DNA from: Candidatus Poribacteria bacterium
GTDB lineage: Bacteria; Poribacteria; WGA-4E; GCA-2687025
Length of the DNA stretch: 64,000 nucleotides
Direction of reading: 5' to 3'
Assembly (NCBI GenBank): GCA_963665845.2
Contig: OY762492.1
Span: forward strand, 320,001-384,000
Within the stretch, counting starts at the first letter, position 1, and every line of letters begins with the position of its first letter. A program made the position numbers and the translations under genes. Shown piece after piece: positions 5,436-58,396 of the stretch. The notes under the pieces were generated by a model. That model was not told the DNA's origin. It did no database searches and was given only the letters and a program-made list of their open reading frames with translations.

Positions 5436-5447
5436 TTATCCTTTGTC

Positions 5448-5569
5448 TGAACTAGGATTTGCATGATTGAAAAGATTGCCAAGAGGTTTGCCGAAAACGA
5501 TACGCCGCCCCCGACATGCCTGCGCCCTCAAAATCCTTAAAACCTATAAATCCTGAAAATCCTAGTTCA
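5448..5569. repeat. Small element bounded by a 13-bp inverted repeat (TGAACTAGGATTT / AAATCCTAGTTCA) with internal ~9-bp AATCCT-type periodicity
   Basis: Perfect 13-bp inverted repeat; aaatccttaaaacctataaatcctgaaaatcct run. Confidence 0.55.
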
Positions 5570-5622
5570 AAACCCAGCGCCCCGCGCCAAACCCCATAGC
5601 CCTGCTTTTCAAGGGGAAATAA

Positions 5623-5790
5623 CTGACCTTACATCTATAGTTGGGACATGGCGGCGGGCGAACGCGGACGTTGTGTGCGCCGCCTCTGGATTCCCGCTTA
5701 CGCGGGAATGACGGTTTGTTTGGCGGCGCCTTTTTCCCATGAATAAAGGCTTTGGTTGTCCAGATGTCCCAACTTTCAGCATGAGGTCAG
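5623..5790 (+). mobile_element. MITE-A, 168 bp, imperfect 27-bp TIRs (CTGACCT...AGTTGGGACAT), 7-bp target duplication GAAATAA, carries a REP-1 palindrome
   Basis: GAAATAA at 5616-5622 and 5791-5797; TIRs match at 20/27; further copies at 16138, 34133-34312 and 43856-44108. Confidence 0.75.
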
Positions 5791-5833
5791 GAAATAAAAT
5801 TCACGTTGTCATTTCTGCTTGAAAAAGAACCGA

Positions 5834-6799
5834 TCACGGAGAGCCGAAAAGACGGCGAAGATAGGACCCTAGCAGCGATCGGCGAGGCACATCATACTGA
5901 TACTCCGCCACGAACGTACACGCCTCGCGCTTCACCCACGCATGCGCCTGCGTCTGCAGATTTATCTTGAGCCATTCGCCGTCCCGCTCCGACGCTTCAT
6001 ATGGGATGCCGGGGCGCGTAAAGCCCCTCGGCGAGGCGATTCGCGTCAAGCCCTTCTCCTTGCGGTACACCACATAATCGTTCACCTCGTAATGTTCCCA
6101 GTCCGCCTTGCTCAACTCATGGGCTATGTCTTGGCGCGTCGAGAGGCTCCTGATGTTGACGGCGTACCCCTCTCCCTTGGATTCATCGCTCTTGCCGATG
6201 ATCCGCCCTTCCCATAAGATCAGCTCCTCATGGGGGTACGGCTCGGTTCGGACCGGGATGCGCCGGCGGAAAATCACCTCGTCCACCAGCCCTTTTGACA
6301 CGGAAGCGACCTTATCTGCCGGCGTCCATCCTGCTTCGCTGCCGGGCTTCAGTTCTATTTTGACCCAGTCCTCGATCCGGCGCGTAAAGGGGCGGCGGGT
6401 GACCGGTTGAGCGGTTGCGATCGTGAGCGAGTCGCCGCGCGGAAAACGGCGCATTTTGGTACCCATTTCTACGGCGACCAGCAGTTCCGCCGCCTCCGGA
6501 CGTACCGCCAACGCCGGTTTTTCCTCCGTTACGGCAAACGGAAGCGGCTCCTCCAAAAGGAGCGCGCGGCGTTCCGCGTCAATGCTGAGGATGCGGGCGA
6601 ACGCCCCGTCCGGGTTGGCGTCAATGACGACGGTCTCTCCTGGGGCGAAGGCGCGGACGCTCTTCAGGCGCAGCTCCGTAGACCCGATCTCATGCGCGCC
6701 GACCGTTTCCGACAAGGGGCGCGGCGGAGCCGTCCACAGATACAACCCGACGCCAAGGAGCGTCAGTACGATGACAAGGCTAACGATCAGACGGCGCAT
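5834..6799 (-). CDS. Membrane-anchored protein with two SH3b-like segments
   Basis: N-terminal TM helix; DWVKIELKPGSEAGWTP and GEWLKINLQTQAHAWVK resemble bacterial SH3 strands. Confidence 0.5.
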   Translation of the reverse strand: MRRLIVSLVIVLTLLGVGLYLWTAPPRPLSETVGAHEIGSTELRLKSVRAFAPGETVVIDANPDGAFARILSIDAERRALLLEEPLPFAVTEEKPALAVRPEAAELLVAVEMGTKMRRFPRGDSLTIATAQPVTRRPFTRRIEDWVKIELKPGSEAGWTPADKVASVSKGLVDEVIFRRRIPVRTEPYPHEELILWEGRIIGKSDESKGEGYAVNIRSLSTRQDIAHELSKADWEHYEVNDYVVYRKEKGLTRIASPRGFTRPGIPYEASERDGEWLKINLQTQAHAWVKREACTFVAEYQYDVPRRSLLGSYLRRLFGSP

Positions 6800-8486: not shown

Positions 8487-8895
8487 TCGATTCGTCCAGC
8501 GCATTTCGTTCGTCCAATGTGTTGTTCCGTTCGGTTCGCAGTTTGTCGGCGGAAGCGGCGGTCTGTTCAAGCGCGCGTTCGGCGGCTTCCGTTTCCGCTT
8601 GAAGACGCCCCGCCCGAAGCGCCGCGCGCGCCTCTTCAACCCGAAGCAGAGCCAAACCCGCCAGCCGGTCCGATTCGGCTCCGTCGCCTGAATCGCGCGC
8701 CTCTTTGGAACGCTCAATCAGCTTTTCCGCCTGTTCAAGCGGCGCGGCTGCCGCGTCAACGCCCTCCTCAAACAGAAGCGCGGCATGGGCGGCTTCGGCG
8801 TCGTAGAGAAGCATGGACGCGCCGCTCCCGCCGCAGCCGTTGAGAGCCAGCGCAAGCAAGAGCGCGGCAGACGCAGACGATAAGTGTTTTGACAT
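8473..8895 (-). CDS. DUF4398-like helical lipoprotein
   Basis: Lipobox LALNGC; Ala/Glu-rich helices; sits upstream of the OmpA gene, the usual pairing. Confidence 0.6.
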   Translation of the reverse strand: MSKHLSSASAALLLALALNGCGGSGASMLLYDAEAAHAALLFEEGVDAAAAPLEQAEKLIERSKEARDSGDGAESDRLAGLALLRVEEARAALRAGRLQAETEAAERALEQTAASADKLRTERNNTLDERNALDESNESD

Positions 8896-9074
8896 GATTC
8901 AGCCCGTTTCTCTCCCGCCGTTCATGCGCGGGAAATCGATTGCGAAACCCGCGAAGCGCCGATTTAAACGCTGCGCAAAATGTATCGTATAATTGAATCG
9001 CAGGCGGCGCAACCGCAGTACGCTCAAACGGATATTCTTCACGGGAACGCGATCTAAAAAGGTCAGGTCAAGCG

Positions 9075-12000
9075 TTACGGTTTGCGGTAATACGCCTGTA
9101 TCGGGCGCGGGGTGAGTCCGCTCTCTGCGACGGCTTGGATGCCATGGACGCTCGCCTGCGCGCCCGCCAGCGTCGTGATGAGCGTGATGTTCCGCTCAAC
9201 CGCCATCGCCCGTATCTTGTTCTCATTCGGCGCGTGGCTTCCCCCGCTCGGAGTGTTGATGATCAGGTCGACCGCGTTGTTTTTCACATAATCATGGATC
9301 GTCGGGCGCCCTTTTCCGATGCTATGCACAAGCTCGACCGAAACGCCCGCTCTGGCGACGGCGCGCGCGGTGCCGTGCGTCGCAACGATGTTGAAGCCGA
9401 GGTCGCGCAGCTGACGCGCAAGAAGCGCCGCCCCCCGCTTGTCCCTGTTGCGGACGCTCATGAAGGCGGTCCCGCTGGTCGGCAGCGGATGCCCCGTTCC
9501 GATCTGCGCTTTCGCAAAGGCGCGCCCGAAGCTTGGATCGATCCCCATCACTTCGCCGGTCGATTTCATCTCTGGTCCAAGCAGCGGGTCCGCCCCAGGC
9601 AGGCGGTCGAACGGAAAGACAGGCGCCTTGACGCTGAAGTATTCTGGCGTCCTTTCCTGGGTGAAACCTAAATTCGTCAGCTTTTTTCCTGTCATGACGC
9701 GCGCCGCCAGCTTCGCCAGCGGCGTTCCGATCGCCTTGCTGACATACGGAATCGTGCGCGAGGCGCGCGGGTTCACCTCCAGCGTGTACAGATCGTCCCC
9801 CTGAAAAGCGTACTGAATGTTCATCAGCCCAATCACATTCAGCTCCCGCGCCAGAGCCAAGGTCGCCGCCCGCACCGCATCCAGCTGGTCGTCGCCGAGA
9901 GAGTACGGCGGAATGACGCAGTCGCTGTCGCCTGAATGAATCCCCGCCTCTTCGATATGCTCCATAATGCCGCCGATGACGACCGTCTCGCTGTCGCAGA
10001 CCGCGTCCACATCGATCTCAATGGCAGACTCCAGATACTTGTCGATGAGTATCGGCCTGTCGGGCGACGCCTCGACGGCGTGGCGCAGATATTCGCGCAG
10101 CTCGTCGTCTGAATGAACAATCTGCATCGCCCTTCCCCCTAAAACATAGGAGGGGCGGACAAGCGTCGGATAGCCGATGCGGGCGGCGATCCCGCGCGCC
10201 TCTTCAAACGAAACGGCGGTGTCGTTGGGCGGTTGGCGCAGTCCGCATTTGTCCAGAACCTCCTTGAAACGCTGGCGGTCTTCCGCCCTGTCGATGTTGT
10301 CAGGGTCGGTGCCGATGATCTTGGCGCCCGCTTCTTTCAGCGCGCCGGCGAGGTTCAACGGCGTTTGACCGCCAAATTGAACGATGACGCCGTCCGGATG
10401 TTCGTTTTCGATGATGTCTAAAACGCTCTCGCGCGTCAAAGGTTCAAAATAGAGGCGGTCGGAGGTGTCGTAGTCGGTGCTGACCGTCTCTGGGTTGCTG
10501 TTGACCATGATCGTCTCGTACCCGTCTTCGCGCAGGGCGAGCGCGGCATGGACGCAGCAGTAATCAAACTCGATCCCCTGTCCGATGCGGTTCGGTCCCC
10601 CGCCGAGGATGAGTATCTTGTCCCGGTCGGAAGGCGGCGCCTCGCTTTCCTCCTCGTAGGTGGAGTAGTAGTACGGCGTGTACGCCTCAAACTCTGCCGC
10701 GCATGTATCGACCAACTTATAGACGGGCTTGATCTCAAGCGACTTGCGCAGCGTTCTCACTTCCGATTCGTCCCTCTCCCAAAGGTCGGCGAGCTGTCGA
10801 TCTCCAAAGCCGAGGCGTTTCAGCCGAAGCAGCTCCCCCCGCTGTTTCTCTTTGCGGGAGCCGCTTTGAAAAAACAGATCTTTCTTTTCTACGGCGGCGC
10901 GCTCCGCCTCCACCAGCTCCTGGATGTTGTGTAAAAAGAACGGGTCAATGCGCGTGTGCGTATGAATCTGCTCCACCGACATGCCTTTTTGAAACGCCTG
11001 CTTGATGAAAAAAAGCCGCTCCGCGTTCGGCACATTCAGCTTGCCGGGCAGCTCCGACACCGGCAGGTCGGCGACAGGCGGATTGCTCAAACCTGTCCAG
11101 CCGGTCTCCATGGAGCGCAGCGCTTTTTGCAGCGATTCCTTGAACGAACGCCCGATCGACATCGCTTCCCCGACCGACTTCATGGAGGTGGTTAAGGTGG
11201 CGTCCACATTCGGAAACTTTTCAAACGCCCAGCGCGGAACCTTCGTAACAACATAATCGATGGTCGGCTCAAACGACGCGGGCGTTTGACGGGTGATGTC
11301 GTTCGGTATCTCGTCCAGCGTATAGCCGACGGCGAGCTTCGCGGCGATCTTGGCGATCGGAAACCCTGTCGCCTTGGAGGCGAGCGCGGAGGAGCGGGAG
11401 ACGCGCGGGTTCATCTCAATGACAACCTGCCGCCCGTCTTCAGGGTTGACGGCAAACTGAATGTTGGAGCCGCCCGTGTCGACGCCGATTTCGCGTATGA
11501 TGCGGATGGAGGCGTCGCGCATCTGCTGATATTCTTTGTCGGTGAGCGTCTGCGCCGGCGCGACCGTGACGCTGTCGCCCGTATGCAGACCCATCGGATC
11601 GATGTTCTCGATGGAGCAGATGATGACCACATTGTCGGCGGCGTCGCGCATCACCTCCAGCTCGTATTCTTTCCAGCCGATAACGCTTTCTTCCACAAGC
11701 GTTTCGTTGGCGGGGCTGATGCGCAAGCCGTCCGCAATCATCTCGCGGTACTCTTCGATGTTGTAGGCGATGCCGCCGCCTTTTCCGCTGAGCGTGAAAC
11801 CAGGGCGCAGAATGAGCGGAAAGGGTATCTCGTTCAGCGCGTCCATCGCCTCGTCCAGCGAGCGCACAACGCGGCTTTTCGGCAGCTGCATGCCGATGTT
11901 CAGCATCGCCTGTTTGAAAAGCAATCGGCTCTCCGCTTTTTGAATAGCGGGCAGCTTCGCCCCAATCAGCTCTACGCCATGGCGGTCCAGTACGCCTGAT

Positions 12001-45012: not shown

Positions 45013-46467
45013 ATGAGCGCGCCGCGCGTTCGATTCGCCCCCTCGCCGACAGGCTCGCTTCACATCGGCAGCGCCCGAACGGCGCTCTTCAACTGGCTCT
45101 ACGCGAGGCGGCACGGCGGAACCTTCATCTTGCGCATTGACGACACTGACGCCGAACGCTCCACCGAAGAGTCAACCCGCTCCATCTTCGAGGCGATGGA
45201 ATGGCTGGGGCTGGACTGGGACGAGGGGCCGTACGCCCAATCGGACCGGCTGAAGCAGCATCAAGAACGGGCGCGGGAACTGATCGAGAACGGCGCGGCG
45301 TATTATTGCTACTGCACTAAAGAGGAGCTTGCCGCCAAACGCGAAGCCGCCCGAAAAGAAGGACGCCCCTACCGCTACGACGGAACATGCCGCAGCCTGT
45401 CCGACAGCGAACGCAAGCGGTTAGACGGCGAAGGGCGTTCAAAGGTCGCGCGGCTGAAAATTGAGCAGGACGAGAGCATCCTGACGCCAGATCTGATCCT
45501 CGGCGATGTGGTCTTCGACTCCTCAACGCTGGACGATTTCATCTTCATGAAGCCGAACTTCACGCCGCTTTACAATTTCAGCTCCGCCGTTGACGACGCC
45601 GATATGGAGATCACGCATGTGATCCGCGGGCAGGATCATCTCCCGAACACGCCGAAGCAGATACTCATCAGCAAGGCGCTTGGGATGGAGCCGCCGAAGT
45701 TTGCGCATCTTCCGATGGTGCATAACGCGCGCGGACAGAAGCTGAGCAAGCGGGACGGCGCTGTCGGGACGCTGGAGTTTCGGGAGATGGGCTTCTTGCC
45801 TGAAGCGCTGGTGAATTATCTGGCGCGCCTTGCATGGTCGGCGGAGGGCGAACAGGAGATCTTTACGACCGAGGAGCTGAAGGCGAAATTCGACCTGGAC
45901 AGGGTCGGCAAAAGCCCCTCCCGCTTCGATATGAAGAAGCTGACATGGTTGAACGGGCAGTATATGAACGAAATGCCGCTTGCTGAAAAGACGGACGGAT
46001 CGGCTCTTTTCTTGAAAAAGGCGGGTTATGAGACTGAAAACGTCCCGCGCGAACGCCTAGAGCGGATCGTGGAAGCGGTCGGCGACCGGCTCCACACCTG
46101 GCCGGACATCGTTACATACGGCTCCTATTTTTTTGAAGAGGACGGCGCGTACGAGTTTGATCCTGCGGCGGTCAAAAAATGGTTTCGTTCCGAGGCGGAG
46201 CTGGAAACAGTTCGCGCCGCCTCGCCTCTCATAGAGGGCATTGACCCGTTCGAAGTGGATGAGATCGACAAGCGAATGCGCGCCTGGGCGGAGGAGCGCG
46301 GCGAAAAGCTGATAAGGGTTCTACAGCCGCTGCGCGTCGCCGTCACAGGCAAGCAGGTTGGACCGAGCCTGTTTGAAACGCTGGAGATCTTAGGCAAAGA
46401 GTCGGTCTTGAACCGCTTGAAGCGCGCGTCAAAAGAGCTGCCGGACATGTACGCGCAAAAGGGCTGA
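45013..46467 (+). CDS. gltX: Glutamate--tRNA ligase
   Basis: RVRFAPSPTGSLHIG, LRIDDTD, KLSKR; AAGGAG RBS. Confidence 0.96.
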   Translation: MSAPRVRFAPSPTGSLHIGSARTALFNWLYARRHGGTFILRIDDTDAERSTEESTRSIFEAMEWLGLDWDEGPYAQSDRLKQHQERARELIENGAAYYCYCTKEELAAKREAARKEGRPYRYDGTCRSLSDSERKRLDGEGRSKVARLKIEQDESILTPDLILGDVVFDSSTLDDFIFMKPNFTPLYNFSSAVDDADMEITHVIRGQDHLPNTPKQILISKALGMEPPKFAHLPMVHNARGQKLSKRDGAVGTLEFREMGFLPEALVNYLARLAWSAEGEQEIFTTEELKAKFDLDRVGKSPSRFDMKKLTWLNGQYMNEMPLAEKTDGSALFLKKAGYETENVPRERLERIVEAVGDRLHTWPDIVTYGSYFFEEDGAYEFDPAAVKKWFRSEAELETVRAASPLIEGIDPFEVDEIDKRMRAWAEERGEKLIRVLQPLRVAVTGKQVGPSLFETLEILGKESVLNRLKRASKELPDMYAQKG

Positions 46468-46503
46468 CGCTTCCGTCAACCCTATCGCAGTATCGTATCT
46501 AAC

Positions 46504-47030
46504 TTACGGGGCGCCGAGGGGCGGCTTTCCGTTCTGCCGCCGCCTCGACCCGCGCCGTAATCACTCGGCGAAACCGGTTGCCCGGCCGGGCTGTTTCAAA
46601 GCGTCATTGAAACGCCTTGCCGTTGCCGCTGCGCCTCCGCTCGGTCCCAAGCGCAAAGCCTTGGAAGCGGGCATATGAGGCGCCGCCGCGTTGGCAGCTT
46701 GTTTCGGACCTCTCCGAAACGACCCTGTGAAGAGGGCCCTCAACCGCTGACGCTCCGCCGGGGCGCGTCAACTGGCTCGCTTGACGGGGCGAACCGTTCG
46801 CGTTCGGTTCGCCGACCGTCCCAGATCAATCGGGCGGCTTGTCCGCGTCCGACGCAACAGGTCGTTGGCTGCATCTGCCTCGGAGTTCCGAAGCTCCCGT
46901 TCGGGTTGGTTCTGAGCCGCTCCGTCGCGCGTAGGAACGTTCAGCTCCGCGCCTCGCGAGGTTTCTTTCCGCCTTGGCGGTTGCCCCGCTGACCTGCCCG
47001 CCGCGTCCGACTGGATCATCGTCGAGCGTC
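46504..47030 (-). ncRNA. Candidate large structured ncRNA, class not recognised
   Basis: ~530 nt with no credible ORF; about 15 stems including long-range nested pairings; GCAA and UUCG loops on the minus strand; ECF-like promoter just upstream. Confidence 0.55.
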
Positions 47031-47039
47031 AATAATGGA

Positions 47040-47066
47040 TACGCAGGGCGTATAGGGAGGGTTACA
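47040..47066 (-). promoter_or_regulatory. ECF-sigma-like promoter
   Basis: Minus strand TGTAAC-N17-CGTA (AAC...CGT pattern), pointing into the structured region. Confidence 0.5.
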
Positions 47067-47277
47067 GGTTTTCGCGTTTTTTTTCTGCCGCATCCCAAAA
47101 AACGCTGTAAGCGGAAATCCGCGTATCTGCAGAAGGCGGACGTCGTCTGCGGCGCCTCTGGATTCCCGCTTGCGCGGGAATGACGACACGGTTGGCGCGG
47201 TCAGTCTCTGTCGGTTGAGAGCTCAACGCGCGCCATGTAAAATGCGTTGAACAGGCATATCGATCATGGAGGCGGAA

Positions 47278-49218
47278 ATGAAAATGCGGCGCGTCTTGTG
47301 CGCGGCGTTCATGTTCTTTGCGGCGCGCGAATTGTGCGTCATGGCGTTTATGAACGAATACGGCGATATAGCGGTACTGTCCGGCGTTAAAATGTATCCG
47401 ACAATCTGGAGCAATCGCGGATATGCGATGCGGCGATTCAAGATTGAGAACAGGTCGCTGGATCAAACCTACCGCGTCACGCTGAGCATCCCGGCTGACA
47501 GGTTTGTTGGAAGAGCGTCCCCCGCTCCCCGACTTCATACCGTTTCTAAGACGATTGATGTTGAGCCTTCCACTATGGAATATGTGACGGTGTTTCAACC
47601 CGCTGTTTCTATGTTTGGATACGACTGCGCTGTGACGATTGACGGACAGCGGCAGGAGCAGCCCGTCGAAATGCTGACAGATCTGTATCGGTTTCACGCA
47701 GCTCCGATTTCCGCCCTGACAACATCCGCGACAACGCAGTTCGTCAGCTCGCCAGATCCGTACGAGCCGAAAATCTTCATGACCAATATCAACGCCGCCG
47801 CCTATCAAGCGACGATGAGCAATAAAGCGAGCGAGTACCTTTCCCGCTCAACAGCCGGCGGCAAAAAGTTGGCGCATCCAGTTTTCATCAGCGCCAACAG
47901 TTTTGAGAATCGTTTCAACTTCATGCTGTCTCGCAAAGCAGGAAAATTCACCGCCGGGAACAGCTCCAAAATCAGTTGGCTGCATTATTCCCCGCTTGAA
48001 GGCGTCGTCTATGACGATAGTTATGTGAATGAAATGACAGACCAAGCGCGCCTCGCTCTGTGGCGGTATGTGGAATGCGGCGGAACGCTCACTTTCATTG
48101 TGATTCGGGATGGGGTGGAGGTGGGAGATGGGACATCAAGGTATAGCAGTAAGAAGCTGCTCAGCGAATGGGCGTCTTTAGACTCTCGACTGAAGAATCG
48201 ACGCGTCTATAAGGATACGTATGAGCGGTTCGATGTTGGCTTTGGCGTGTTTCACCTGGTCGGACGGGACAGCTTCGGTTCCGTCGATATTGCCGATACG
48301 GGCGTCGCCGTACCGGAAACATGGTATGAAGCGAGAGCCGCTTGGCATCGGCAGCATACGGCATACGGCGCAAATCAGGTTCTGCCGATGACGGAGCCGG
48401 TCGATTCGCGCGGATCGTTTCAGCGTTTCTTTTTTCTAGCGTTTTTCCTTGCCGTTCTGATCGGACCCGCGCATCTTTATGTTTTAAAACGTATGAAGCG
48501 GCGCGGGTGGGTTTATTGGACGACGCCCGCGCTTGCGGCGCTGGCATGCGGCGCGTTTGTGTTGTATGCGTCTGTCGCGTTCGGTTGGAACCCGCAGACC
48601 CGCGTCGTAAGCTTGACGCATCTAGACCAGCAAACAGGGCGGGCGGCGACCATCGGCTGGGCGGCGTACTATTCCCCCATGACGAATGCCGCCGAGCTTC
48701 ATTTTGATGAAAATACGGAGCTGACGCCTCTAGTGTACGGCGATCAGCTGGTCGGCTCCATCGACTGGACAGACGGACAGCGGCTGACAGGCGGATGGCT
48801 TCCCGCCCGCGTCCCGCGGCACTTCAAGCTGCGCAAAAACGAAGACCGCCCTGAACGCATCGACATCAAAAGAGAGGGCGGCGCCTTAAAGGTCGTCAAC
48901 CGCCTCGGCGCGCGCGTCAAACATTTCTGGTATGCTGACCATGACGGCACACTGTATCGGGCGTCCGGCATCGGAAACGGCGCCGAAGCCGCTTTAACCA
49001 AAACAACAGGCGCGCCGATAGGATCGAAGAAGCTGCGCGATGTGTACGCCTCTCAAGACTGGGTTGACGAGATTGAGGCGGTCAAGGCGAAGCCCGCGGC
49101 GTATCTTCAGCCTGGGCAGTATTTTGCGGAGCTGAAAGAGAACGTGTTTGTGGAGAAGGCGCTGAAGGGCGCGAAGGCCAAGCCGTCCATATCGCTTGTG
49201 TTAGGTACCTTGGAGTAG
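47278..49218 (+). CDS. Array paralog 1: exported N-terminal domain, GATase-like domain, 2 TM helices and C-terminal domain
   Basis: W..Y..LEGVV..ALWRYVECGGTL; LIGP..LKR..W.TTP TM hairpin; shared C-terminus; start may be 47266. Confidence 0.75.
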   Translation: MKMRRVLCAAFMFFAARELCVMAFMNEYGDIAVLSGVKMYPTIWSNRGYAMRRFKIENRSLDQTYRVTLSIPADRFVGRASPAPRLHTVSKTIDVEPSTMEYVTVFQPAVSMFGYDCAVTIDGQRQEQPVEMLTDLYRFHAAPISALTTSATTQFVSSPDPYEPKIFMTNINAAAYQATMSNKASEYLSRSTAGGKKLAHPVFISANSFENRFNFMLSRKAGKFTAGNSSKISWLHYSPLEGVVYDDSYVNEMTDQARLALWRYVECGGTLTFIVIRDGVEVGDGTSRYSSKKLLSEWASLDSRLKNRRVYKDTYERFDVGFGVFHLVGRDSFGSVDIADTGVAVPETWYEARAAWHRQHTAYGANQVLPMTEPVDSRGSFQRFFFLAFFLAVLIGPAHLYVLKRMKRRGWVYWTTPALAALACGAFVLYASVAFGWNPQTRVVSLTHLDQQTGRAATIGWAAYYSPMTNAAELHFDENTELTPLVYGDQLVGSIDWTDGQRLTGGWLPARVPRHFKLRKNEDRPERIDIKREGGALKVVNRLGARVKHFWYADHDGTLYRASGIGNGAEAALTKTTGAPIGSKKLRDVYASQDWVDEIEAVKAKPAAYLQPGQYFAELKENVFVEKALKGAKAKPSISLVLGTLE

Positions 49219-49223
49219 GTGAA

Positions 49224-51158
49224 ATGAAGCATGCGCGCGTTGCGTTGGCGTCGCTTTTTGCGTTGATTGCGGCGGATGTATTTGCCTCCCCGACCGTTTC
49301 GATGATCGGCGATATTGGGATCGTGACAAACTCGAGATCTTACGGTCGAGACGCGTTGAGCGGCTATGCGATGCATCGCATTGAGCTCTGGAACAACTCG
49401 TCCACCAAAACGCATCGGATTCATCTGCGCATTCCAGCAGAGCCGCGCGGTTTGCCCGGCGTCAACGCCTATCTTCACAGCGTCTCTAAGACGTTTGTCG
49501 TTCCGCCATCCTCTCGTATGGACGCGCTGATTCATCAACCGCCGCTGCCGATGCGCCGAGAGCCGACGATCGCTGTCACTGTCAACGGAAAGCTGGAAGG
49601 GAACGTTCGTCTTCGTATGCCGCATTCACATGCAGCCGCCGCGCCGAGACTGTTCTACCCCTCCGCCGCGCCGACAGCGAACTACATCTCCTTCGTCTCG
49701 TATGCGTTTGAACCGCGCGTCTTGATAAACGTATGGAGGAACTACGACGCATATGTCGTACTGGATCAAGCGGTTATCTCGTCCGCTTCTGCCGGCCGCG
49801 GAAGTTATGCGGCGCCTCCTAAGCCTGTCGAAGGCAGCCATTATGACGGGTTAAGAGCCGCCTATTATTATGTCCCGCCGGATGCAACGAGCGGTTTTTT
49901 CAAAGGCAACGGTTCCAAACCGGTCTGGCTCAATTACACAACATTTGAAGGCGTTGTCTATAGCGAAGAATACGCGCAGCATCTGACGCCGGCGGGCAGG
50001 AACGCGCTTTGGCGGTATGTGGATTGCGGAGGTTCGCTCGCCTATTTCGGCAGCGGAAAAATGCCGGCATGGTGGGCGGAGCTGGACCCGCGGCTGGCGG
50101 ACAAGGATCTCCAACATGGCGCGTTTGAGAAGTATGAGATCGGGTTCGGATCGCTCTATTTGGTCGGCGAGGTAGATGCGCCCGCGGCGTCAGATACTTC
50201 TACGGAAACGCATGAACTGCCGGACAGCGCCATCGACATCGCAAAGTCATGGTATGAGTCCCAACCGACGACAACGCGCCGATACACAGCGCAGGGAGCG
50301 GCAGATATTCTTCCTTTAGGGAAACGGTTCAACTTTACCGCGTCTCTACAACGCTTTTTTCTGATGGGGCTGCTTCTGGTCGTTCTGATGGGTCCGGCGC
50401 AGCTGTTCGTATTGAAACGCATCAAACGGCGCGAATGGGTTTATTGGACGACGCCCGCGCTCGCGGCCCTGGCATGCGGGGCGTTTGTGTTGTATGCGTC
50501 CATCGCGTTCGGCTGGAACCCGCAGACCCGCGTCGTCAGCTTGACGCATCTAGACCAGCAAACAGGGCGGGCGGCGACCATCGGCTGGGCGGCGTACTAT
50601 TCCCCCATGACGAATGCCGCCGAGCTTCATTTTGATGAAAATACGGAGCTGACGCCTCTAGTGTACGGCGATCAGCTGGTCGGCTCCATCGACTGGACAG
50701 ACGGGCAGCGGCTGACAGGCGGGTGGCTCCCCGCCCGCGTCCCGCGGCACTTCAAGCTGCGCAAAAACGAAGACCGCCCCGAACGCATCGACATCAAAAG
50801 AGAGAACGGGAAGATAAAGGTTGTCAACCGCCTCGGCGCGCGCGTCAAAAAATTCTGGTATGCTGACCATGATGGCAAACTGTATCGGGCGTCCGGCATC
50901 GGAAACGGCGCCGAAGCCGTTTTAACCGAACAAAAACCCGCGCCGATCGGCTTTAGGAAGCTGCGCCGCGATGTGTACGTCTCTCAAAACTGGGTGGACG
51001 AGATTGAGGCGGTCAAGGCATGGCCCTCGGTGTATCTTCAGCCTGGATGGTATTATGCGGAGCTGAAAGAGAATGTGTTTGTGGAGAAGGCGCTGAAAGG
51101 CGCGAAGGCGAAGCGGTCCACATGTCTTGCGCTGGGCGCATTGGAGGAATCGAAATGA
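49224..51158 (+). CDS. Array paralog 2
   Basis: Same architecture; central-to-C-terminal block nearly identical to paralog 1. Confidence 0.75.
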   Translation: MKHARVALASLFALIAADVFASPTVSMIGDIGIVTNSRSYGRDALSGYAMHRIELWNNSSTKTHRIHLRIPAEPRGLPGVNAYLHSVSKTFVVPPSSRMDALIHQPPLPMRREPTIAVTVNGKLEGNVRLRMPHSHAAAAPRLFYPSAAPTANYISFVSYAFEPRVLINVWRNYDAYVVLDQAVISSASAGRGSYAAPPKPVEGSHYDGLRAAYYYVPPDATSGFFKGNGSKPVWLNYTTFEGVVYSEEYAQHLTPAGRNALWRYVDCGGSLAYFGSGKMPAWWAELDPRLADKDLQHGAFEKYEIGFGSLYLVGEVDAPAASDTSTETHELPDSAIDIAKSWYESQPTTTRRYTAQGAADILPLGKRFNFTASLQRFFLMGLLLVVLMGPAQLFVLKRIKRREWVYWTTPALAALACGAFVLYASIAFGWNPQTRVVSLTHLDQQTGRAATIGWAAYYSPMTNAAELHFDENTELTPLVYGDQLVGSIDWTDGQRLTGGWLPARVPRHFKLRKNEDRPERIDIKRENGKIKVVNRLGARVKKFWYADHDGKLYRASGIGNGAEAVLTEQKPAPIGFRKLRRDVYVSQNWVDEIEAVKAWPSVYLQPGWYYAELKENVFVEKALKGAKAKRSTCLALGALEESK

Positions 51159-52975
51159 GATTGGCGCGTGTTTTATGCGCGGCGGCCCTGTTCGGAGGCG
51201 CGCTGAACGGATCCGCGTTTTATCAGGATTACGGCGACATCTCGATCGAACTGATGAGCTCTATTAGCGGAGCCAGCGGATTTAAGACCCATGGCTACGC
51301 GGCTCTCCGCATTAAAGCAACCAATAGATCTCCCGACAAGGCGCATCGGGTCGAGATACGCTTCCCGAACGAAGGCGGCAGATCCTTCTGGGGTCCAGGG
51401 CAACTTAAAAGCTTTTCCAAGACGATTGATGTCGCTCCCGACTCAACCGCAGAAGCCTACTTTTATCAACCGTCGATACTCCTAGACGGCGACGCTCATG
51501 AAGCGGTTGTGTATATTGACGGAGAAAAGCAGGCTCAGAATATTCATGCGTTTGGCATATCCTCGCATGGCGCTGTCGGTACGTTCAGCAGTTCATCCGG
51601 CGGCTCATGGGTCAATCCTCGAGAAGAGCCGACCGTGTCGTTTGGCGCGATTCGAGAGAGCAGTATTCCCGGATCTTCCAAAGTCAACTCATGGGATCGC
51701 CGTTCATTTGATTCATTTGATTCAACCTGGCTCGCCTATTCTGGTTACGACGGCATTGTTCTGGCTCTTTCCGAAGCCAAAACGTTGAGCGCCGAGGAAC
51801 GCGCCGCGCTCTGGGAGTATGTGAAAGCCGGCGGGTCGCTCGCCGTCATGGGAATAGGGCAATTGCCCGATGACTGGGCGCGGTTGGACAGCCGTTTGGC
51901 AAATCGAGAACTGGTCATGGATGTTTCTGAGCGGTATGAAGTCGGGTTTGGAATTCTTTTTTTGGCGGGACCGCCGTTCTTTCCGACATCGTCCCGCCCC
52001 GCCGTTCATACCGCGATTTACGATTCATGGTTTGAAACGCAAAAGCCCTGGCTGCGAATCTACACCGCCGCCGGCGCCAACACAGCCCTTCCTGTCTCGA
52101 AGCCGGTCGACACACGAGCAAGTTTCCGCCGCATGTTTTTTCTGTCGCTTCTTTTTGCGGCGATTATCGGACCACTAAACATCGCCGTTCTGCGGCGAAA
52201 GAAACAGATGATGCGGCTTTACTGGACGACGCCCGCTATTTCCTTGACCGCCTGTTTGCTGTTCGTTCTTTATTTCGCCGTCTTTGAAGGTCCGGTCAAG
52301 TATATGCGCGTCGCCAGCTTGACGATGATTGACCAGGAGGCGCGCTTGGCGACGACGCTCGGCTGGCTCGGTTTCTATTCGCCGTTTGCGGAGCCTGAAG
52401 GGCTTCTCTTTGACGAAGTAACGGAGCTGACGCTGCAGCAGGAGGGGTTGCCCAGATTTGGCCCGATGGCGGTAGGTACGGCGGCAGGCATGGACAGGAC
52501 AGGTTCCGTTGACTGGACGGACGGACAGCGGTGGTCGGGCGGATGGATTCAGCCCCGCGTCCCGCTGCATTTCAAACTGCGCAAGAGTGAATCCCGCCCC
52601 GAACGCATTGACCTCAAAAGAGAGGGCGGCGATATAAAGGTCATCAACCGCCTCGGCGCCCGCGTCAAAGCGTTCTGGTACGCCGACGATGAAGGCGGAG
52701 TTTATCGAGCGGACGACATTCCGAAAGGCGCCGAAGCCGTTTTAACCAAAACAACAGGCGCGCCGATCGGCTCAAAGAAGCTGCGCGATGTGTACGCCCG
52801 CTGGGACTGGGTCGCCGAGATTGAAAAATTGAAGGCGTCGCCCGCGGCGTATCTTCAACATGGCTGGTATTTCGCCGAGCTGGAAGAGAACGTTTTTGTG
52901 GAGAAGGCGATGAAGGGCGCGGAGATGCTGCCGTCCACATGCCTTGTGTTGGGCGCATTGGAGGAATCGAAATGA
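51155..52975 (+). CDS. Array paralog 3; start moved to MRLARVL
   Basis: GGAGG RBS with ATGA overlap; same architecture. Confidence 0.78.
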   Translation: MRLARVLCAAALFGGALNGSAFYQDYGDISIELMSSISGASGFKTHGYAALRIKATNRSPDKAHRVEIRFPNEGGRSFWGPGQLKSFSKTIDVAPDSTAEAYFYQPSILLDGDAHEAVVYIDGEKQAQNIHAFGISSHGAVGTFSSSSGGSWVNPREEPTVSFGAIRESSIPGSSKVNSWDRRSFDSFDSTWLAYSGYDGIVLALSEAKTLSAEERAALWEYVKAGGSLAVMGIGQLPDDWARLDSRLANRELVMDVSERYEVGFGILFLAGPPFFPTSSRPAVHTAIYDSWFETQKPWLRIYTAAGANTALPVSKPVDTRASFRRMFFLSLLFAAIIGPLNIAVLRRKKQMMRLYWTTPAISLTACLLFVLYFAVFEGPVKYMRVASLTMIDQEARLATTLGWLGFYSPFAEPEGLLFDEVTELTLQQEGLPRFGPMAVGTAAGMDRTGSVDWTDGQRWSGGWIQPRVPLHFKLRKSESRPERIDLKREGGDIKVINRLGARVKAFWYADDEGGVYRADDIPKGAEAVLTKTTGAPIGSKKLRDVYARWDWVAEIEKLKASPAAYLQHGWYFAELEENVFVEKAMKGAEMLPSTCLVLGALEESK

Positions 52976-54792
52976 GATTGGCGCGCGTCTTGTGCGCGGC
53001 GGCGCTGCTCGGATGCGCGCTGAACGGATCCGCGTTTTATCAGGATTACGGCGACATCTCGATCGAACTGATGAGCTCTATTAGCGGAGCCAGCGGATTT
53101 AAGACCCATGGCTACGCGGCTCTCCGCATTAAAGCAACCAATAGATCTCCCGACAAGGCGCATCGGGTCGAGATACGCTTCCCGAACGAAGGCGGCAGAT
53201 CCTTCTGGGGTCCAGGGCAACTTAAAAGCTTTTCCAAGACGATTGATGTCGCTCCCGACTCAACCGCAGAAGCCTACTTTTATCAACCGTCGATACTCCT
53301 AGACGGCGACGCTCATGAAGCGGTTGTGTATATTGACGGAGAAAAGCAGGCTCAGAATATTCATGCGTTTGGCATATCCTCGCATGGCGCTGTCGGTACG
53401 TTCAGCAGTTCATCCGGCGGCTCATGGGTCAATCCTCGAGAAGAGCCGACCGTGTCGTTTGGCGCGATTCGAGAGAGCAGTATTCCCGGATCTTCCAAAG
53501 TCAACTCATGGGATCGCCGTTTATTTGATTCATTTGATTCAACCTGGCTCGCCTATTCTGGTTACGACGGCATTGTTCTGGCTCTTTCCGAAGCCAAAAC
53601 GTTGAGCGCCGAGGAACGCGCCGCGCTCTGGGAGTATGTGAAAGCCGGCGGATCGCTCGCCGTGATGGGAATAGGGCGGCTGTCCGATGATTGGGCGCGG
53701 CTGGACAGCCGTTTGACGAATCGAGAACTGGTCGGCGACACTTCTGAACAGTATGAAATCGGATTTGGACTGCTTTTTCTGTCGGGTCCGCCGTACTTTC
53801 CGACCGCGGCCCGCCCGACCATTCATACAGCGATTTACGATTCATGGCTTGAAACGCAAGGAACCTGGCTGCGAATCTACACCGCGTCCGGCGCCAACAC
53901 AGTTTTCCCTGTCGCCGAGCCGTTCGACACCCTGGCAAGTTTCCGCCGCATGTTTTTTCTGGCGCTTCTTTTTGCGGCGATTATCGGACCACTAAACATC
54001 GCCGTTCTGCGGCGAAAGAAACAGATGATGCGGCTTTACTGGACGACGCCCGCTATTTCCTTGACCGCCTGTTTGCTGTTCGTTCTTTATTTCGCCGTCT
54101 TTGAAGGTCCGGTCAAGTATATGCGCGTCGCCAGCTTGACGATGATTGACCAGGAGGCGCGCTTGGCGACGACGCTCGGCTGGCTCGGTTTCTATTCGCC
54201 GTTTGCGGAGCCTGAAGGGCTTCTCTTTGACGAAACGACCGAGCTGACGCTGCAGCAGGAGGGGCTGCGCAGATTCAGCCCGATGGCGATAGGCGCATCG
54301 ACAGGAATGGAAAGGGGAGGTTCCGTCGACTGGACGGAGGGGCAGCGGTGGTCGGGCGGATGGATTCAGCCCCGCGTCCCGCTGCATTTCAAACTGCGCA
54401 AGAGCGAATCCCGCCCCGAACGCATTGACCTCAAAAAAGAGGGCGGCGATATAAAGGTTGTCAACCGCCTCGGCGCTCGCGTCAAGACATTCTGGTACGC
54501 CGACGATGAAGGCGGAGTTTATCGAGCGGACGACATTCCGAAAGGCGCCGAAGCCGTTTTAACCAAAACAACAGGCGCGCCGATCGGGTTGAAAAAGCTG
54601 CGCGATGTGTACGCGCGCTGGGACTGGGTCGCCGAGATTGAGAGGGTGAAGGCGAAGCCCGCGGCGTATCTTCAACCTGGATGGTATTATGCGGAGCTGG
54701 AAGAGAACGTGTTTGTGGAGAAGGCGCTGAAGGGCGCGGAGATGATGCCGTCCACGTCGCTGGTCATCGGGCAAATGGAGGAGAAGAAATGA
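52972..54792 (+). CDS. Array paralog 4
   Basis: ATGA overlap; 5' third nearly identical to paralog 3. Confidence 0.78.
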   Translation: MRLARVLCAAALLGCALNGSAFYQDYGDISIELMSSISGASGFKTHGYAALRIKATNRSPDKAHRVEIRFPNEGGRSFWGPGQLKSFSKTIDVAPDSTAEAYFYQPSILLDGDAHEAVVYIDGEKQAQNIHAFGISSHGAVGTFSSSSGGSWVNPREEPTVSFGAIRESSIPGSSKVNSWDRRLFDSFDSTWLAYSGYDGIVLALSEAKTLSAEERAALWEYVKAGGSLAVMGIGRLSDDWARLDSRLTNRELVGDTSEQYEIGFGLLFLSGPPYFPTAARPTIHTAIYDSWLETQGTWLRIYTASGANTVFPVAEPFDTLASFRRMFFLALLFAAIIGPLNIAVLRRKKQMMRLYWTTPAISLTACLLFVLYFAVFEGPVKYMRVASLTMIDQEARLATTLGWLGFYSPFAEPEGLLFDETTELTLQQEGLRRFSPMAIGASTGMERGGSVDWTEGQRWSGGWIQPRVPLHFKLRKSESRPERIDLKKEGGDIKVVNRLGARVKTFWYADDEGGVYRADDIPKGAEAVLTKTTGAPIGLKKLRDVYARWDWVAEIERVKAKPAAYLQPGWYYAELEENVFVEKALKGAEMMPSTSLVIGQMEEKK

Positions 54793-56606
54793 GGGCGCGT
54801 TGTTTCCTTACCGCGCTTCTTTGCGCGAGCTTCTTCTGGAGCGTACCCTCAATCGCGCAAGTTTACGGCGATATCGAGATTGAATGGGAGCCGATCTACT
54901 CTACCCGCAGGAGACCCGGCATCCACGGCTACGGTATGCATCGTTTCAAAGTTGTCAATCGTTCGGCGTCCAAAACCCGACGCGTCGCGATTCAGGTACC
55001 TGCTGAAAACATGCGGCGCGGCATGCTCTCCATCCGCAGCGTCTCCAGTACCGCCGCGGTGCCTCCCCAGACAACCATGAGAATAAAGCTCTTCCAGCCG
55101 CCTTATCGAATGGGCGGCGGCGCGCGCGTGTCTATCGATGGCAGCCTGCAAGCTACGCCCATCGCTCAATCTTCCAGGAGCGCTATCGAACACGGCATAT
55201 CGCGGTATTATCGGGAGTCTGAAAATTGGGCGTTGGTCTCTCGAAATATCAAATGGCTGGAGCCGCGCGTATTGCTGAACGAGAACCTTGCCATTTCCAC
55301 TACGATGGCAGGCGGTCCGAAAACAGCGTTTGTCAACGGAGTCGTGGACGAATCGAACTGGCTGGCATACACCCCGTACCATGGCGTCGTCATGACTATA
55401 GAGCAGGCTAAGAAATTGAACCGCGATCAGCTGACCGCCCTGCGCAGATATGTGGAATGCGGCGGCTCTCTTGCGGTGGAAGGGATATGGGAGGAGGACG
55501 CGCGCCTGCCCGATAGTTGGGCTGCATTGGACAGCAGATTCGCAAACAGAGCCATTGACGGCTTTGAGAAGTTTGAGATCGGCTTTGGCGTTGTTTTCTT
55601 GACAAGAAACTTCTGGTACATCATCGCCGGAAGAAGGGATGGAAAACCGTACTTTGCCACCGTCATTCCAACCTCATGGCATGACGGCGGCAAAGCGTGG
55701 TGGAGGACGCCCACCATACAGGGCGCCAATGCAATTTTCCCGATGACAACGGAGTTCCGCTACGAGGATGCGATGCGGCGCATGTTCTATTTCATGCTTC
55801 TCGCCGCTTTGTTGATGGGACCCTTGCATATTTATCTCCTCAATCGAAAGAAACGTCTTAAATGGCTCTATTGGACAACCCCGCTGCTTTCGGCGTTCGT
55901 ATGCCTGGGCGTCGTTCTCTTCGCGGCGATGGAACTAGGGCGGAATAAACAGATGCGCGTCGCGAGCGTTACCTTTTTAGACCAGCGCTTCCAGAGCGCC
56001 GCCACTATCGGCTGGCTCGGCTTCTATTCGCCCATGACGACCATCCATGAGCTTCGCTTCGAGAGCAGTACCGAGTTGACTCCTCTTCTCCTGGACGGAA
56101 GCGATCTGTTGATCCAAGTAGGCGCCTCGGTCGGTACGATCGACTGGACAGACGGGCAGCGGCTCGCCGGCGGATGGGTACAAGCGGGCGTCCCCCTCCA
56201 CTTCAAACTGCGCAAAAACGAAGACCGCCCCGAACGCATCGACATCAAAAGAGAGGGCGGCGATATAAAGGTTGTCAACCGGCTCGGCGCGCGCGTCAAA
56301 GCTTTCTGGTACGCCGACGCTGAAGGCGGGGTTTATCAAGCGGCTGACATTCCGAAAGGCGCCGAAGCCGTTTTAACGAAAACAACAGGCGTACAGATCG
56401 GCTCAAAGAAGCTGCGCAGCGTGTACGCCTCTCCAAACTGGGTTGATGAGATTGAAGCGGTCAAGGCGAAGCCCGCGGCGTATCTTCAACCTGGGCAGTA
56501 TTTCGCCGAGCTGGAAGAGAATGTGTTTGTGGAGAAGGCGCTGAAGGGCGCGGAGATGCTGCCGTCCACATGCCTTGTGTTGGGCGCATTGGAGGGATCG
56601 AAATGA
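54789..56606 (+). CDS. Array paralog 5; start moved to MRARCFL
   Basis: ATGA overlap; divergent N-terminus, shared C-terminus. Confidence 0.78.
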   Translation: MRARCFLTALLCASFFWSVPSIAQVYGDIEIEWEPIYSTRRRPGIHGYGMHRFKVVNRSASKTRRVAIQVPAENMRRGMLSIRSVSSTAAVPPQTTMRIKLFQPPYRMGGGARVSIDGSLQATPIAQSSRSAIEHGISRYYRESENWALVSRNIKWLEPRVLLNENLAISTTMAGGPKTAFVNGVVDESNWLAYTPYHGVVMTIEQAKKLNRDQLTALRRYVECGGSLAVEGIWEEDARLPDSWAALDSRFANRAIDGFEKFEIGFGVVFLTRNFWYIIAGRRDGKPYFATVIPTSWHDGGKAWWRTPTIQGANAIFPMTTEFRYEDAMRRMFYFMLLAALLMGPLHIYLLNRKKRLKWLYWTTPLLSAFVCLGVVLFAAMELGRNKQMRVASVTFLDQRFQSAATIGWLGFYSPMTTIHELRFESSTELTPLLLDGSDLLIQVGASVGTIDWTDGQRLAGGWVQAGVPLHFKLRKNEDRPERIDIKREGGDIKVVNRLGARVKAFWYADAEGGVYQAADIPKGAEAVLTKTTGVQIGSKKLRSVYASPNWVDEIEAVKAKPAAYLQPGQYFAELEENVFVEKALKGAEMLPSTCLVLGALEGSK

Positions 56607-58396
56607 GATTGGCGCGCGTCTTGTGCGCGGCGGCGCTGCTCGGATGCGCGCTGAACGGATCCGCGTTTTATCAGGATTACGGCGACATCTCAATCGAATT
56701 GAACAGTTCTATTAGCGGAGCCGGCGGCTTTACGAGTCGCGGCTACGCCGCTGTCCGCATTACAGCGGCGAACAGCTCTCCCGACAAGGCGCATCGGGTC
56801 GAGATACGCTTCCCGCTCGAAGGAGGATTTTCCATTTCGGGGCCGGGGAGGCTCAAAAGTTTCTCCAAGACGATACAGATCGCTCCCGACTCAACCGCGG
56901 AAGTCTACATCTATCAACCGCGCATATTTCCAGACTTCGAATCCGCCGATGAAGGGGTTGTGTATATTGACGGAGAGAAGCAAGCGCAGAATGTGCGCGC
57001 GATGTTCTCTGGGGGCGGCGGTTGGCTCGCCAGTTCGGGCGGCGGCTCATGGACCGATTATCATATGGATCCGAGCGTGTCGTTTGGCGCGATTGATGTG
57101 AGCAGTTTTCCGGTAACTACTAAAATCAGCGCATGGACTCGCCGTTCATTCGATTCAACCTGGCTCGCTTATTCAGGTTATGACGGCATGGTACTGTCTC
57201 TTTCCGAAGCCAATACGTTGGGCGCCGATGAACGCGCCGCCCTCTGGGAGTATGTGAAAACCGGCGGGTCGCTCGCCGTGATGGGAATAGGGCGGCTGTC
57301 CGATGACTGGGCGCGGATGGACAGCCGTTTGACGAATCGAGAACTGGTCGGCGACGCTTCTGAACAGTATGAAATCGGGTTTGGACTGCTTTTTTTGTCG
57401 GGTCCGGCGTTCTTTCCGACCTCGTCCCGCCCCTCGATTCATACCGCAATTTACGATTCATGGCTTGAAACGCAAAAACCCTGGCTGCGAATCTACACCG
57501 CCGCCGGCGCAAACACAGCCCTTCCTGTCTCGGAGCCGGTCGACACCAGGGCAAGTTTCCGCCGCATGTTTTTCCTGTCGCTTCTGTTTGCGGCGATTAT
57601 CGGACCCTTGAACATCGCCCTTCTGCGGCGAAAGAAACAGATGACGCGGCTTTACTGGACGACGCCCGCCATTTCCTTGACCGCCTGTTTGCTGTTCGTT
57701 CTTTATTTCGCCGTTTTTGAAGGACCAAGGAAGTATATGCGCGTCTCCAGCTTAACGCTGATTGACCAGGAGTCGCGTTCGGCGGCGACGCTCGGCTGGA
57801 TCGGTTTCTATTCGCCGTTTGCGGAGCCTGAAGGGCTTCTCTTTGACGAAGTAACGGAGCTGACGCTGCAGCAGAAGGGGATGGACACATTCAGACCGAG
57901 AGCGATAGGCGCAGCGGCGGGCATGGACAGGGCAGGTTCCGTCGACTGGACGGAGGGGCAGCGGTGGTCGGGCGGATGGATTCAGCCCCGCGTCCCGCTG
58001 CATTTTAAACTGCGCAAGAGCGAATCCCGCCCCGAACGCATCGACATCAAAAAAGAGGACGGCGCCTTAAAGGTTGTCAACCGCCTCGGCGCGCGCGTCA
58101 AGACGTTCTGGTACGCCGACGCTGAAGGCGGGGTTTATCAAGCGGCTGACATCCCGAAAGGCGCCGAAGCCGCTTTAACCAAAACAACAGGCGCGCCCAT
58201 CGGCTCGAAGAAGCTGCGCGATGTGTACGTCTCCCAAGACTGGGTTGCCGAGATCGAGGCGGCGAGGAAATCTCCAGCGGCGTATCTTCAACCTGGATGG
58301 TATTTTGCCGAGCTGGAAGAGAACGTTTTTGTGGAGAAGGCGATGAGAGGCGCGGAGATGATGCCGTCCGCGTCGCTTGTCATCGGGAAGTTTTAA
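56603..58396 (+). CDS. Array paralog 6
   Basis: ATGA overlap; closest to paralogs 3 and 4. Confidence 0.78.
   Translation: MRLARVLCAAALLGCALNGSAFYQDYGDISIELNSSISGAGGFTSRGYAAVRITAANSSPDKAHRVEIRFPLEGGFSISGPGRLKSFSKTIQIAPDSTAEVYIYQPRIFPDFESADEGVVYIDGEKQAQNVRAMFSGGGGWLASSGGGSWTDYHMDPSVSFGAIDVSSFPVTTKISAWTRRSFDSTWLAYSGYDGMVLSLSEANTLGADERAALWEYVKTGGSLAVMGIGRLSDDWARMDSRLTNRELVGDASEQYEIGFGLLFLSGPAFFPTSSRPSIHTAIYDSWLETQKPWLRIYTAAGANTALPVSEPVDTRASFRRMFFLSLLFAAIIGPLNIALLRRKKQMTRLYWTTPAISLTACLLFVLYFAVFEGPRKYMRVSSLTLIDQESRSAATLGWIGFYSPFAEPEGLLFDEVTELTLQQKGMDTFRPRAIGAAAGMDRAGSVDWTEGQRWSGGWIQPRVPLHFKLRKSESRPERIDIKKEDGALKVVNRLGARVKTFWYADAEGGVYQAADIPKGAEAALTKTTGAPIGSKKLRDVYVSQDWVAEIEAARKSPAAYLQPGWYFAELEENVFVEKAMRGAEMMPSASLVIGKF

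Follow-up and report, generated by a model that had tools for sequence, protein, structure and literature searches.

The window analysed here is a 64,000-nt stretch of the genome of a Candidatus Poribacteria bacterium (G000:C1:320001-384000; the genome is 90% complete), and a second genome of the same genus, G001, provided the comparison copy of the RNA locus. The RNA element (Table 1) lies between gltX and a divergent array of hypothetical proteins of approximately 650 aa, the first gene of which starts at 47266, and the gene order around it is identical in G001. It is directly flanked by gltX and by a gene for a hypothetical membrane protein, and a HAD gene lies beyond gltX. Since no gene follows the element on its own strand, it is not a leader. 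No adjacent gene for a partner protein was seen among the flanking genes, no transposase lies beside the element, and no tRNA genes were found within the 64-kb window.

The neighbouring array (47266-58396) is a tandem arrangement of six paralogous membrane proteins of 600 to 650 aa, and at least four are present in G001. Neighbouring paralogues have near-identical C-terminal blocks in common. Two of the proteins were scanned, with no Pfam match in either, and the Atlas look-alikes of the first array protein were unnamed clusters from Planctomycetota and Verrucomicrobiota, the nearest named one being DUF7408 (10% of members). At 47150-47195 there is also a short REP-like palindromic repeat, matched at about 890 places in G000; it is missing here in G001, and it attracts many RNA contigs originating elsewhere.

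Table 1. Features of the locus, with positions given in the window
Feature	Position	Strand	Remarks
gltX (glutamyl-tRNA synthetase)	45013..46467	+	PF00749, PF19269; convergent neighbour; same position in G001
RNA body	46562..47030	-	469 nt; closing stem and multi-branch junction with about nine arms (predicted)
Terminal hairpin, 57 nt	46504..46560	-	56/59 columns identical in G001; folds separately; no U-tract
P8-P10, 3' arms	46572..46683	-	Most variable part; P10 capped by conserved GCAA tetraloop
P4-P7, four consecutive hairpins	46685..46777	-	p 0.55-1.0
9-bp hairpin GGCGAACCG/CGGUUCGCC, CGCG-containing loop	46788..46813	-	p 1.0; only the loop varies in G001
attC-like segment, 62 nt	46812..46873	-	45/62 identical to G054, 38/62 to G013
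P2, 5' domain, ~195 nt	46824..47017	-	Long-range helices enclosing multi-branch hairpins; from base-pair probabilities
Internal repeat GUCGGACGCGG, copy 2	46843..46853	-	Within the best conserved core, 46815-46860
10-nt loop UA-CGCGCG-AC, self-complementary hexamer	46924..46933	-	Unpaired in G000 fold; candidate kissing loop
Internal repeat GUCGGACGCGG, copy 1	47001..47011	-	Second copy permits two registers
-10 box CGTA, ECF-type promoter	47040..47043	-	Conserved in G001
-35 box TGTAAC (TGTAACC), same ECF-type promoter	47061..47066	-	Identical in G001
Promoter of the divergent array, sigma-70 type, TTGAGA-N17-TAAAAT	47215..47243	+	1 found vs 0.1 expected in shuffles

The initial annotation had proposed a large structured noncoding RNA in this intergenic space, with no protein-like ORF between gltX and the array. 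Two small ORFs do occur in the region (83 aa on the minus strand and 105 aa on the plus strand), and neither is preserved in G001, where lost starts and frameshifting indels leave no conserved ORF. The sequence motifs that had been listed were all found in the region (21/21 checked), and the six with coordinates were correctly placed. Consistent with the novelty that had been suggested, Rfam gave no match over the window at the gathering score and only chance matches at E ≤ 10, the best at 20 bits; the ROOL, GOLLD and OLE models had no match in the region at either threshold. Two identities were considered and rejected. RNase P RNA, tmRNA and SRP RNA, whose signatures had been noted as absent, have their own canonical copies elsewhere in G000 and no model match in the region, while a mobile repeat of the MITE or REP type, which many genomic copies would have indicated, was dismissed given that BLAST and nhmmer both recovered the RNA element as single-copy in G000.

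Parts of the stretch were present in contigs from 12 RNA runs of six studies, of which seven runs spanning all six studies were analysed (X1, X2, X5, X6, X7, X10, and X11; according to their records, X5 and X6 are sponge metagenomes and X10 is a coral metagenome). All seven contained RNA contigs inside 46562-47030. On the 5' side, contigs ended at 47030 (X11, with one letter over), 47021, 47017, and 47003, and none went beyond 47031. On the 3' side, two X1 contigs ended at 46562, and an X6 contig ended at 46565, with three letters over. A probable DNA run, X13, crossed the whole element and its ends at a depth of 22; since it is near-identical and may be the source of this DNA, it served only as a control that DNA crosses the ends of the element. 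From the contig ends, we infer that the RNA starts near 47030. The stops in two studies give a weak hint that the 3' end lies at the base of the terminal hairpin (46562), where a stop could also reflect poor priming in the hairpin that follows, and a length of 530 nt is possible. Of the annotated length of about 530 nt, the terminal hairpin has stood up in that it is conserved, whereas the RNA contigs cover approximately 469 nt and not this hairpin.

In X2, single-contig depth was 2,199 to 11,018 on the element compared to 3.2 to 3.8 on pieces of gltX, and this roughly 1000-fold excess is only a hint, as contig depth cannot rank genes. No contigs on gltX or the downstream gene were observed in X1, X5, X6, X7, X10, and X11, where missing cover proves nothing. 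By contig depth, the RNA appears to be very abundant, an impression affected by the fact that the RNA runs were chosen for containing this stretch.

The copy in G001 is syntenic and identical in 421 of 472 columns (89%), compared to 79% (173/220) at the four-fold sites of gltX, and the core at 46815-46860 is identical throughout (46/46). Substitutions in G001 and in contigs from X5, X6, X11, and X1/X2 were scored on the G000 fold, among the changes listed and with indels ignored. On the minus-strand fold, the number of broken pairs compared to random placement was, per haplotype, 9 versus 16.4, 2 versus 8.2, 4 versus 10.9, 3 versus 7.6, and 1 versus 3.5 (P = 0.005, 0.001, 0.0007, 0.010, and 0.045, in the same order), while no sparing of pairs was seen on the plus-strand fold (P 0.40 to 0.54). 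These five haplotypes are not independent, as X5 and X6 are close to G001, and they represent about three independent types. Furthermore, 14 of the 64 distinct changes are G-U wobble swaps when read on the minus strand, compared to 4 when read on the plus strand. Natural substitutions therefore spare the minus-strand fold and not the plus-strand fold.

Two-sided changes were rare. Between G000 and G001 there were none in 167 pairs (RNAalifold on two sequences), and one clear case was found in X6, where the pair 46672/46639 has turned from G-C to U-A beside indels. As the searches recovered near relatives only, there is almost no two-sided covariation, and the support accordingly applies to the overall fold and not to individual helices. 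Concerning the compensatory changes to which the initial annotation had pointed, the substitutions do fit the minus-strand fold, but few are two-sided compensations. The contigs are strandless, and the wobble changes together with the promoter sequence described below suggest that the RNA originates from the minus strand; the annotated minus-strand transcript is accordingly seen as RNA contigs within the element, its strand being deduced from these two features.

For 46490-47080, the minus strand had a folding z-score of -3.5 and the plus strand one of -2.2, while the minus strand of 46562-47030 scored -3.9. Among 25 random 469-nt windows of the genome (12 shuffles each), one scored below -3.9 and two at or below -3.5, and RNase P RNA and tmRNA scored -1.1 and -0.2, respectively. 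The folding z of the element is only moderately beyond background: the values are low, as the annotation would predict, but the tail of random genome windows reaches the same values. It could therefore be argued that the element is GC-rich intergenic DNA that folds incidentally and is transcribed spuriously, and carriage by two genomes only would fit with this as well. Nevertheless, identity above that of four-fold sites, strand-specific sparing of pairs, and RNA contigs in six studies, with outer ends fitting the promoter and the hairpin, make such an explanation barely credible. RNA contigs, no Rfam match, a single copy, and substitutions sparing the minus-strand fold all agree with the large structured minus-strand noncoding RNA that had been proposed, and we consider it very probable that the RNA is real and functional.

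The predicted fold is closed by a stem of 47028-47019 with 46571-46562 in G000, where the 5' end pairs with 46562-46567 (p 0.98); in the G001 fold, the 5' end prefers 46786-46779. A pairing of the 5' end (gctcg/cgagc) at 46775, as first annotated, is thus not the one predicted for G000, although it names the region that G001 prefers. Approximately two thirds of the RNA bases are predicted to be paired. Beyond the 5' domain P2, about eight more arms are predicted, and after these the separate 57-nt hairpin. For the 5' domain P2, the structure of which was fitted to the same two sequences (G000 and G001), 60 of 60 modelled pairs are kept in G001, five via one-sided changes and none via two-sided changes. 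Its outer helix has two predicted registers through the copies of GUCGGACGCGG (p approximately 0.3 to 0.6 each), and an 11-nt repeat was matched in 19 of 300 shuffles. The CGCGCG hexamer in the 10-nt loop (46926-46931) has no change in G001 or the contigs, among the changes listed, and in X11 (a single contig of depth 5.5) A replaces the two outer loop bases while the hexamer is kept. CGCGCG is not enriched, occurring once compared to 1.75 times expected in shuffles. In P4-P7, the changes in G001 are located in loops or are G-U/G-C swaps.

Some details of the annotated structure had to be revised. Tetraloops had been taken to indicate the minus strand, and the GCAA at 46578-46581 is indeed conserved, but the UUCG loop (U>C at 46892) and the first GCAA (A>G at 46981) vary in G001, X5, X6, X10, and X11. 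These two loops were therefore discarded as an argument for the strand. The hairpin cctcgcgagg is absent in G001, and while the motifs of the listed hairpins are all present, several of these hairpins overlap and are mutually exclusive. The 57-nt hairpin is likely a terminator or processing signal, and it may form the 3' end of a primary transcript of 530 nt. A promoter-like bubble, i.e., an interior loop of at least 8x8 nt, was found in none of 1000 sampled structures, and no pseudoknot-rich pattern was detected.

Upstream of the RNA, a promoter-like element, TGTAAC-N17-CGTA (equal to TGTAACC-N16-CGTA), is located at 47066-47040 on the minus strand. Both boxes are unchanged in G001 although the spacer carries substitutions, and the CGTA box is 10 nt from the furthest 5' end of the RNA contigs (47030/47031, X11), in line with the ECF-type promoter initially placed about 10 nt upstream of the first stem. 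According to the available text of PMC3420878, the ECF16 pattern is tGTAACc-N16-CGAA and that of EcfF is GTAAC-N14-15-(c/t)CG(t/a); TGTAACC-N16-CGTA resembles both. The housekeeping promoters of G000 resemble TTGACA/TATGAT. Judging from this sequence, an ECF sigma factor likely drives minus-strand transcription of the RNA element, and the promoter pattern also makes it likely that the RNA is stress-switched.

Genome-wide, the TGTAAC-N-CGT pattern was not enriched (16 matches at spacer 17 compared to 4 to 20 at spacers 12 to 22), there was no spacer preference, and no regulon was established for the motif. At a plausible distance, the motif precedes one sigma-70-family gene and two genes that presumably belong to a VOC-like family. 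Among 25 sigma-70-family genes, one is preceded by TGTAAC-N16-CGTT and another by GTAAC-N17-CGTT. The former, a 221-aa sigma-70-family gene (PF04542, PF04545) on the minus strand (L244:2264-2929, i.e., G000 C1:1509793-1510383), is a candidate only for an autoregulated regulator of this promoter type. About a dozen long ECF-like sigma genes of G000, which form an expanded family with open frames of 390 to 670 aa, were also noted, several of them in tandem (C1:1716054-1726043, 2454256-2456194, and others).

The RNA is convergent with gltX, and the region of the terminal hairpin is common to both, as could be expected for a base-pairing regulator acting in cis or trans, i.e., an antisense RNA to gltX, a leader of the paralogue array, or a small RNA. 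However, a gap of 95 nt separates the end of the RNA body from the gltX stop codon, and the array has its own sigma-70-type promoter. With a best complement elsewhere in the genome of 16 to 21 nt (E ≥ 0.09), and with most bases predicted to be paired within the RNA itself, we find such regulation extremely unlikely.

The known carriers of the element are two genomes and strain variants. BLAST searches of 41 genomes and of 176 genomes of the phylum found G001 only, in addition to six weak matches (E 3e-4 to 7e-3) that were coding or attC-like and close to chance expectation among 175 other genomes. No further homologue was found with the covariance models R1 and R2 (61 genomes each, with strict filters; R1 also in 8 genomes of the family) or R3 (40 genomes), and weak R1 matches of 15 to 22 bits were unconvincing alignments. 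These models were built from two sequences and have limited reach, so that the RNA is to be regarded as not found and not as absent. A gapped repeat pattern gave at least 117 stretches in a GTDB scan, and among the matches listed only one, L094 from Candidatus Poribacteria, was real and represented the same homologue; 100 of the at least 117 stretches were also scored with R1. One metagenome scan resulted in 8 chance matches, six viral scans and BLAST against phages and plasmids resulted in chance matches only, and R1 found nothing in one actinobacterial genome, which is uninformative. Six other genomes from the same family, and the remainder of the class, likewise yielded no copy of the RNA. 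Thus, no homologue was found outside the genus by BLAST, covariance models, or scans, as anticipated for the lineage-specific RNA that had been suggested. In the literature searched, we found no report of a noncoding RNA, including 6S RNA, for Poribacteria; supplementary motif catalogues could list the element, and subscription papers were mostly outside the search.

In three of five same-family genomes, gltX loci lack the element (gltX itself was not found in the other two), a pattern which would fit if it were a still-transcribed remnant or domesticated fragment of a mobile element, such as the attC of an integron cassette or an IS110-type guide RNA. The 62-nt segment in Table 1 has 61 to 73% identity to two sites at gene ends in other Poribacteria, L263 (G013:C72) and L270 (G054:C280), which we take to be attC-like and which suggest integron cassettes in those genomes. 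Matches in the flanks were 31/48 and 24/48 compared to 13.8 ± 2.6 in 78 viral controls, a contrast that is inflated because the hits were selected by similarity. The core differs, with G001 reading GGTAGGC where the two sites read GTTAGG, i.e., GGT in place of GTT. The segment forms no attC hairpin when folded (nor did folding reach significance for the two reference sites) and is instead used in predicted long-range RNA helices. In addition, the element is single-copy with no transposase beside it, no integron integrase scored above the cut-off, no cassette was found, and the six weak hits in the 175 other genomes were near chance. A mobile origin is therefore very unlikely. Should the segment nonetheless derive from an attC site, a present function would still be possible, and it may mark the origin of the RNA core.

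Which function such an RNA might have was considered by comparison with known classes. The RNA could be a scaffold or sponge for another lineage-specific RNA-binding protein, which would be bound through single-stranded motifs that recur along the RNA, for example ACGCG and CCAAC. ACGCG occurs 6 times compared to 2.3 expected (P 0.02) and CCAAC 3 times compared to 0.6 expected (P 0.01), both uncorrected for the seven motifs tried. A star of many hairpins is typical of sponge RNAs, with CsrB and RsmZ carrying many short hairpins on one long RNA, as is the case here, and the narrow range of the RNA would fit with a narrow partner. Unlike in CsrB and RsmZ, GGA is not enriched (13 compared to 11.6 expected) or placed in loops, and CsrA was not found in G000 (90% complete). 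Considering also that no partner gene is adjacent and that the haplotypes differ in two copies of the motifs, we regard a role as sponge as doubtful.

The initial annotation had placed the RNA in the size class of OLE, ROOL, and GOLLD, which, according to the accessible portion of PMC12286853, multimerise through kissing loops with palindromic loop sequences. An RNA of this kind could form a homo-dimer or cage via palindromic kissing loops, with swapping of GUCGGACGCGG between chains, and act as a stress-induced scaffold. The poribacterial RNA is likewise large, highly structured, and apparently very abundant, with size and apparent abundance within the range of these classes, and its promoter is of the ECF type. 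Its palindromic loops, CGCGCG at 46926-46931 and CGCG in 46788-46813, are candidates for intermolecular contacts: they are the only loop-loop matches of at least 4 Watson-Crick pairs in the G000 fold, the hexamer is kept in X11 while the outer loop bases change, and in a cofold the hairpin dimerises through its loop. However, there is no Rfam match to any of the three classes, no homologue in phage records or the six viral scans, and no pseudoknot network, and the hexamer is not enriched. No palindrome-to-palindrome covariation was found in the haplotypes seen. The poribacterial RNA also has a far narrower range than ROOL, GOLLD, and OLE and is not near tRNA islands (the window holds no tRNA), and in contrast to ROOL and GOLLD, no prophage genes were found among the neighbours checked. 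Membership of this group is possible but uncertain; of the earlier assignment only the size holds, and a role on RNA polymerase like that of CoRP fits at least as well.

We tentatively favour the reading that the RNA binds and stores RNA polymerase in a similar manner to CoRP and Ms1, and that it replaces the 6S RNA not found here. Under stress, the ECF promoter would raise the level of the RNA, which would then hold RNA polymerase through its conserved core (46815-46860 with 47001-47017), and this storage would damp housekeeping transcription in a slow-growing symbiont. In the text available, CoRP is described as a 516-nt intergenic RNA with close homologues in one genus, from a lineage without 6S and Ms1, and the same paper puts forward one abundant RNA that binds polymerase for every species (PMC11077062). 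The likeness to CoRP is one of profile: the RNA is approximately 500 nt long, intergenic, apparently abundant (by contig depth only), and known only from one genus without recognised 6S or Ms1. CoRP, however, has been shown to bind polymerase, core as well as holoenzyme, and is located between tRNA-Gln/Glu genes (synteny tRNA-Gln, tRNA-Glu, RNA, tRNA-Glu), whereas the poribacterial RNA is a predicted binder with an ECF-type promoter and has no flanking tRNA.

With Rfam models, 6S RNA was detected in none of the 31 genomes of the group (G000-G030) and Ms1 in none of 21. The 6S result is weak evidence of absence because the model recovered 6S in only 5 of 14 control genomes. No 6S-like element was found behind zapA in 16 loci inspected by eye and alignment or in 12 loci by cmscan, and none before ygfA in G000. 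The RNA has paired ends in common with 6S (RF00013) and Ms1 (RF02566), and like these it is an apparently abundant stand-alone RNA with the same proposed job. It differs in giving no model match, in length (469 nt compared to approximately 180 to 200 for 6S, a rod that binds the sigma-70 holoenzyme and templates pRNA, and 300 for Ms1), and in that none of their usual neighbour genes (for Ms1, HAD-hydrolase and oxidoreductase) flank it. Furthermore, a central bubble is a defining feature of 6S and Ms1 in the part of PMC9130861 that was available, while the poribacterial RNA is a predicted multi-branch star without one.

The reading as polymerase-binding RNA is supported by a chromosomal location adjoining a housekeeping gene and by RNA ends predicted to pair. 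Against it stand the missing 6S-type bubble and tRNA-Gln/Glu synteny, a promoter pattern that is not enriched genome-wide, and a single clear two-sided pair change. Since the RNA was not found in sister genomes, those genomes would also need a different polymerase-binding RNA. A bolder version, in which this would be a fourth class of abundant polymerase-binding RNA, with ECF control and the lack of a promoter-mimic bubble both seen for the first time, dimerising via a palindromic kissing loop, with a core from domesticated attC-like sequence and among the most abundant transcripts of a sponge symbiont, we consider improbable.

Whatever its function, the element looks like a new class or family of large noncoding RNA with a narrow known range. 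Few large, highly structured noncoding RNAs are known in bacteria, and several have an unusual structure or role (OLE dimers, ROOL and GOLLD cages, CoRP). The RNA described here is outside every Rfam family and comes from an uncultured phylum, with defined ends, natural variants, and a candidate promoter; the narrow range (two genomes and strain variants) limits the generality of the class. It bears on the proposal, as worded in the accessible text of PMC11077062, of one abundant polymerase-binding RNA per bacterium, in a phylum without detected 6S or Ms1. According to the available text of a poribacterial metatranscriptome study, reads were counted on coding sequences only (PMC5087111), and such an RNA would therefore have gone uncounted.

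A few observations were made in passing at the other loci inspected. In G000, a selenocysteine tRNA is located at C1:523705-523800. Directly upstream of ygfA there is a small gene on the minus strand (L246:2035-2323), which we take to encode a look-alike of a microcompartment vertex protein of the EutN/CcmL type. In two further genomes (G006 and G007; L256 and L257), zapA is followed by a GC-rich, apparently noncoding stretch of approximately 250 nt, for which Rfam gave no match in L256 and which is possibly another noncoding RNA of that genus. Finally, copies resembling a CRISPR repeat were observed just behind zapA in G019 (L253:1934-1970).
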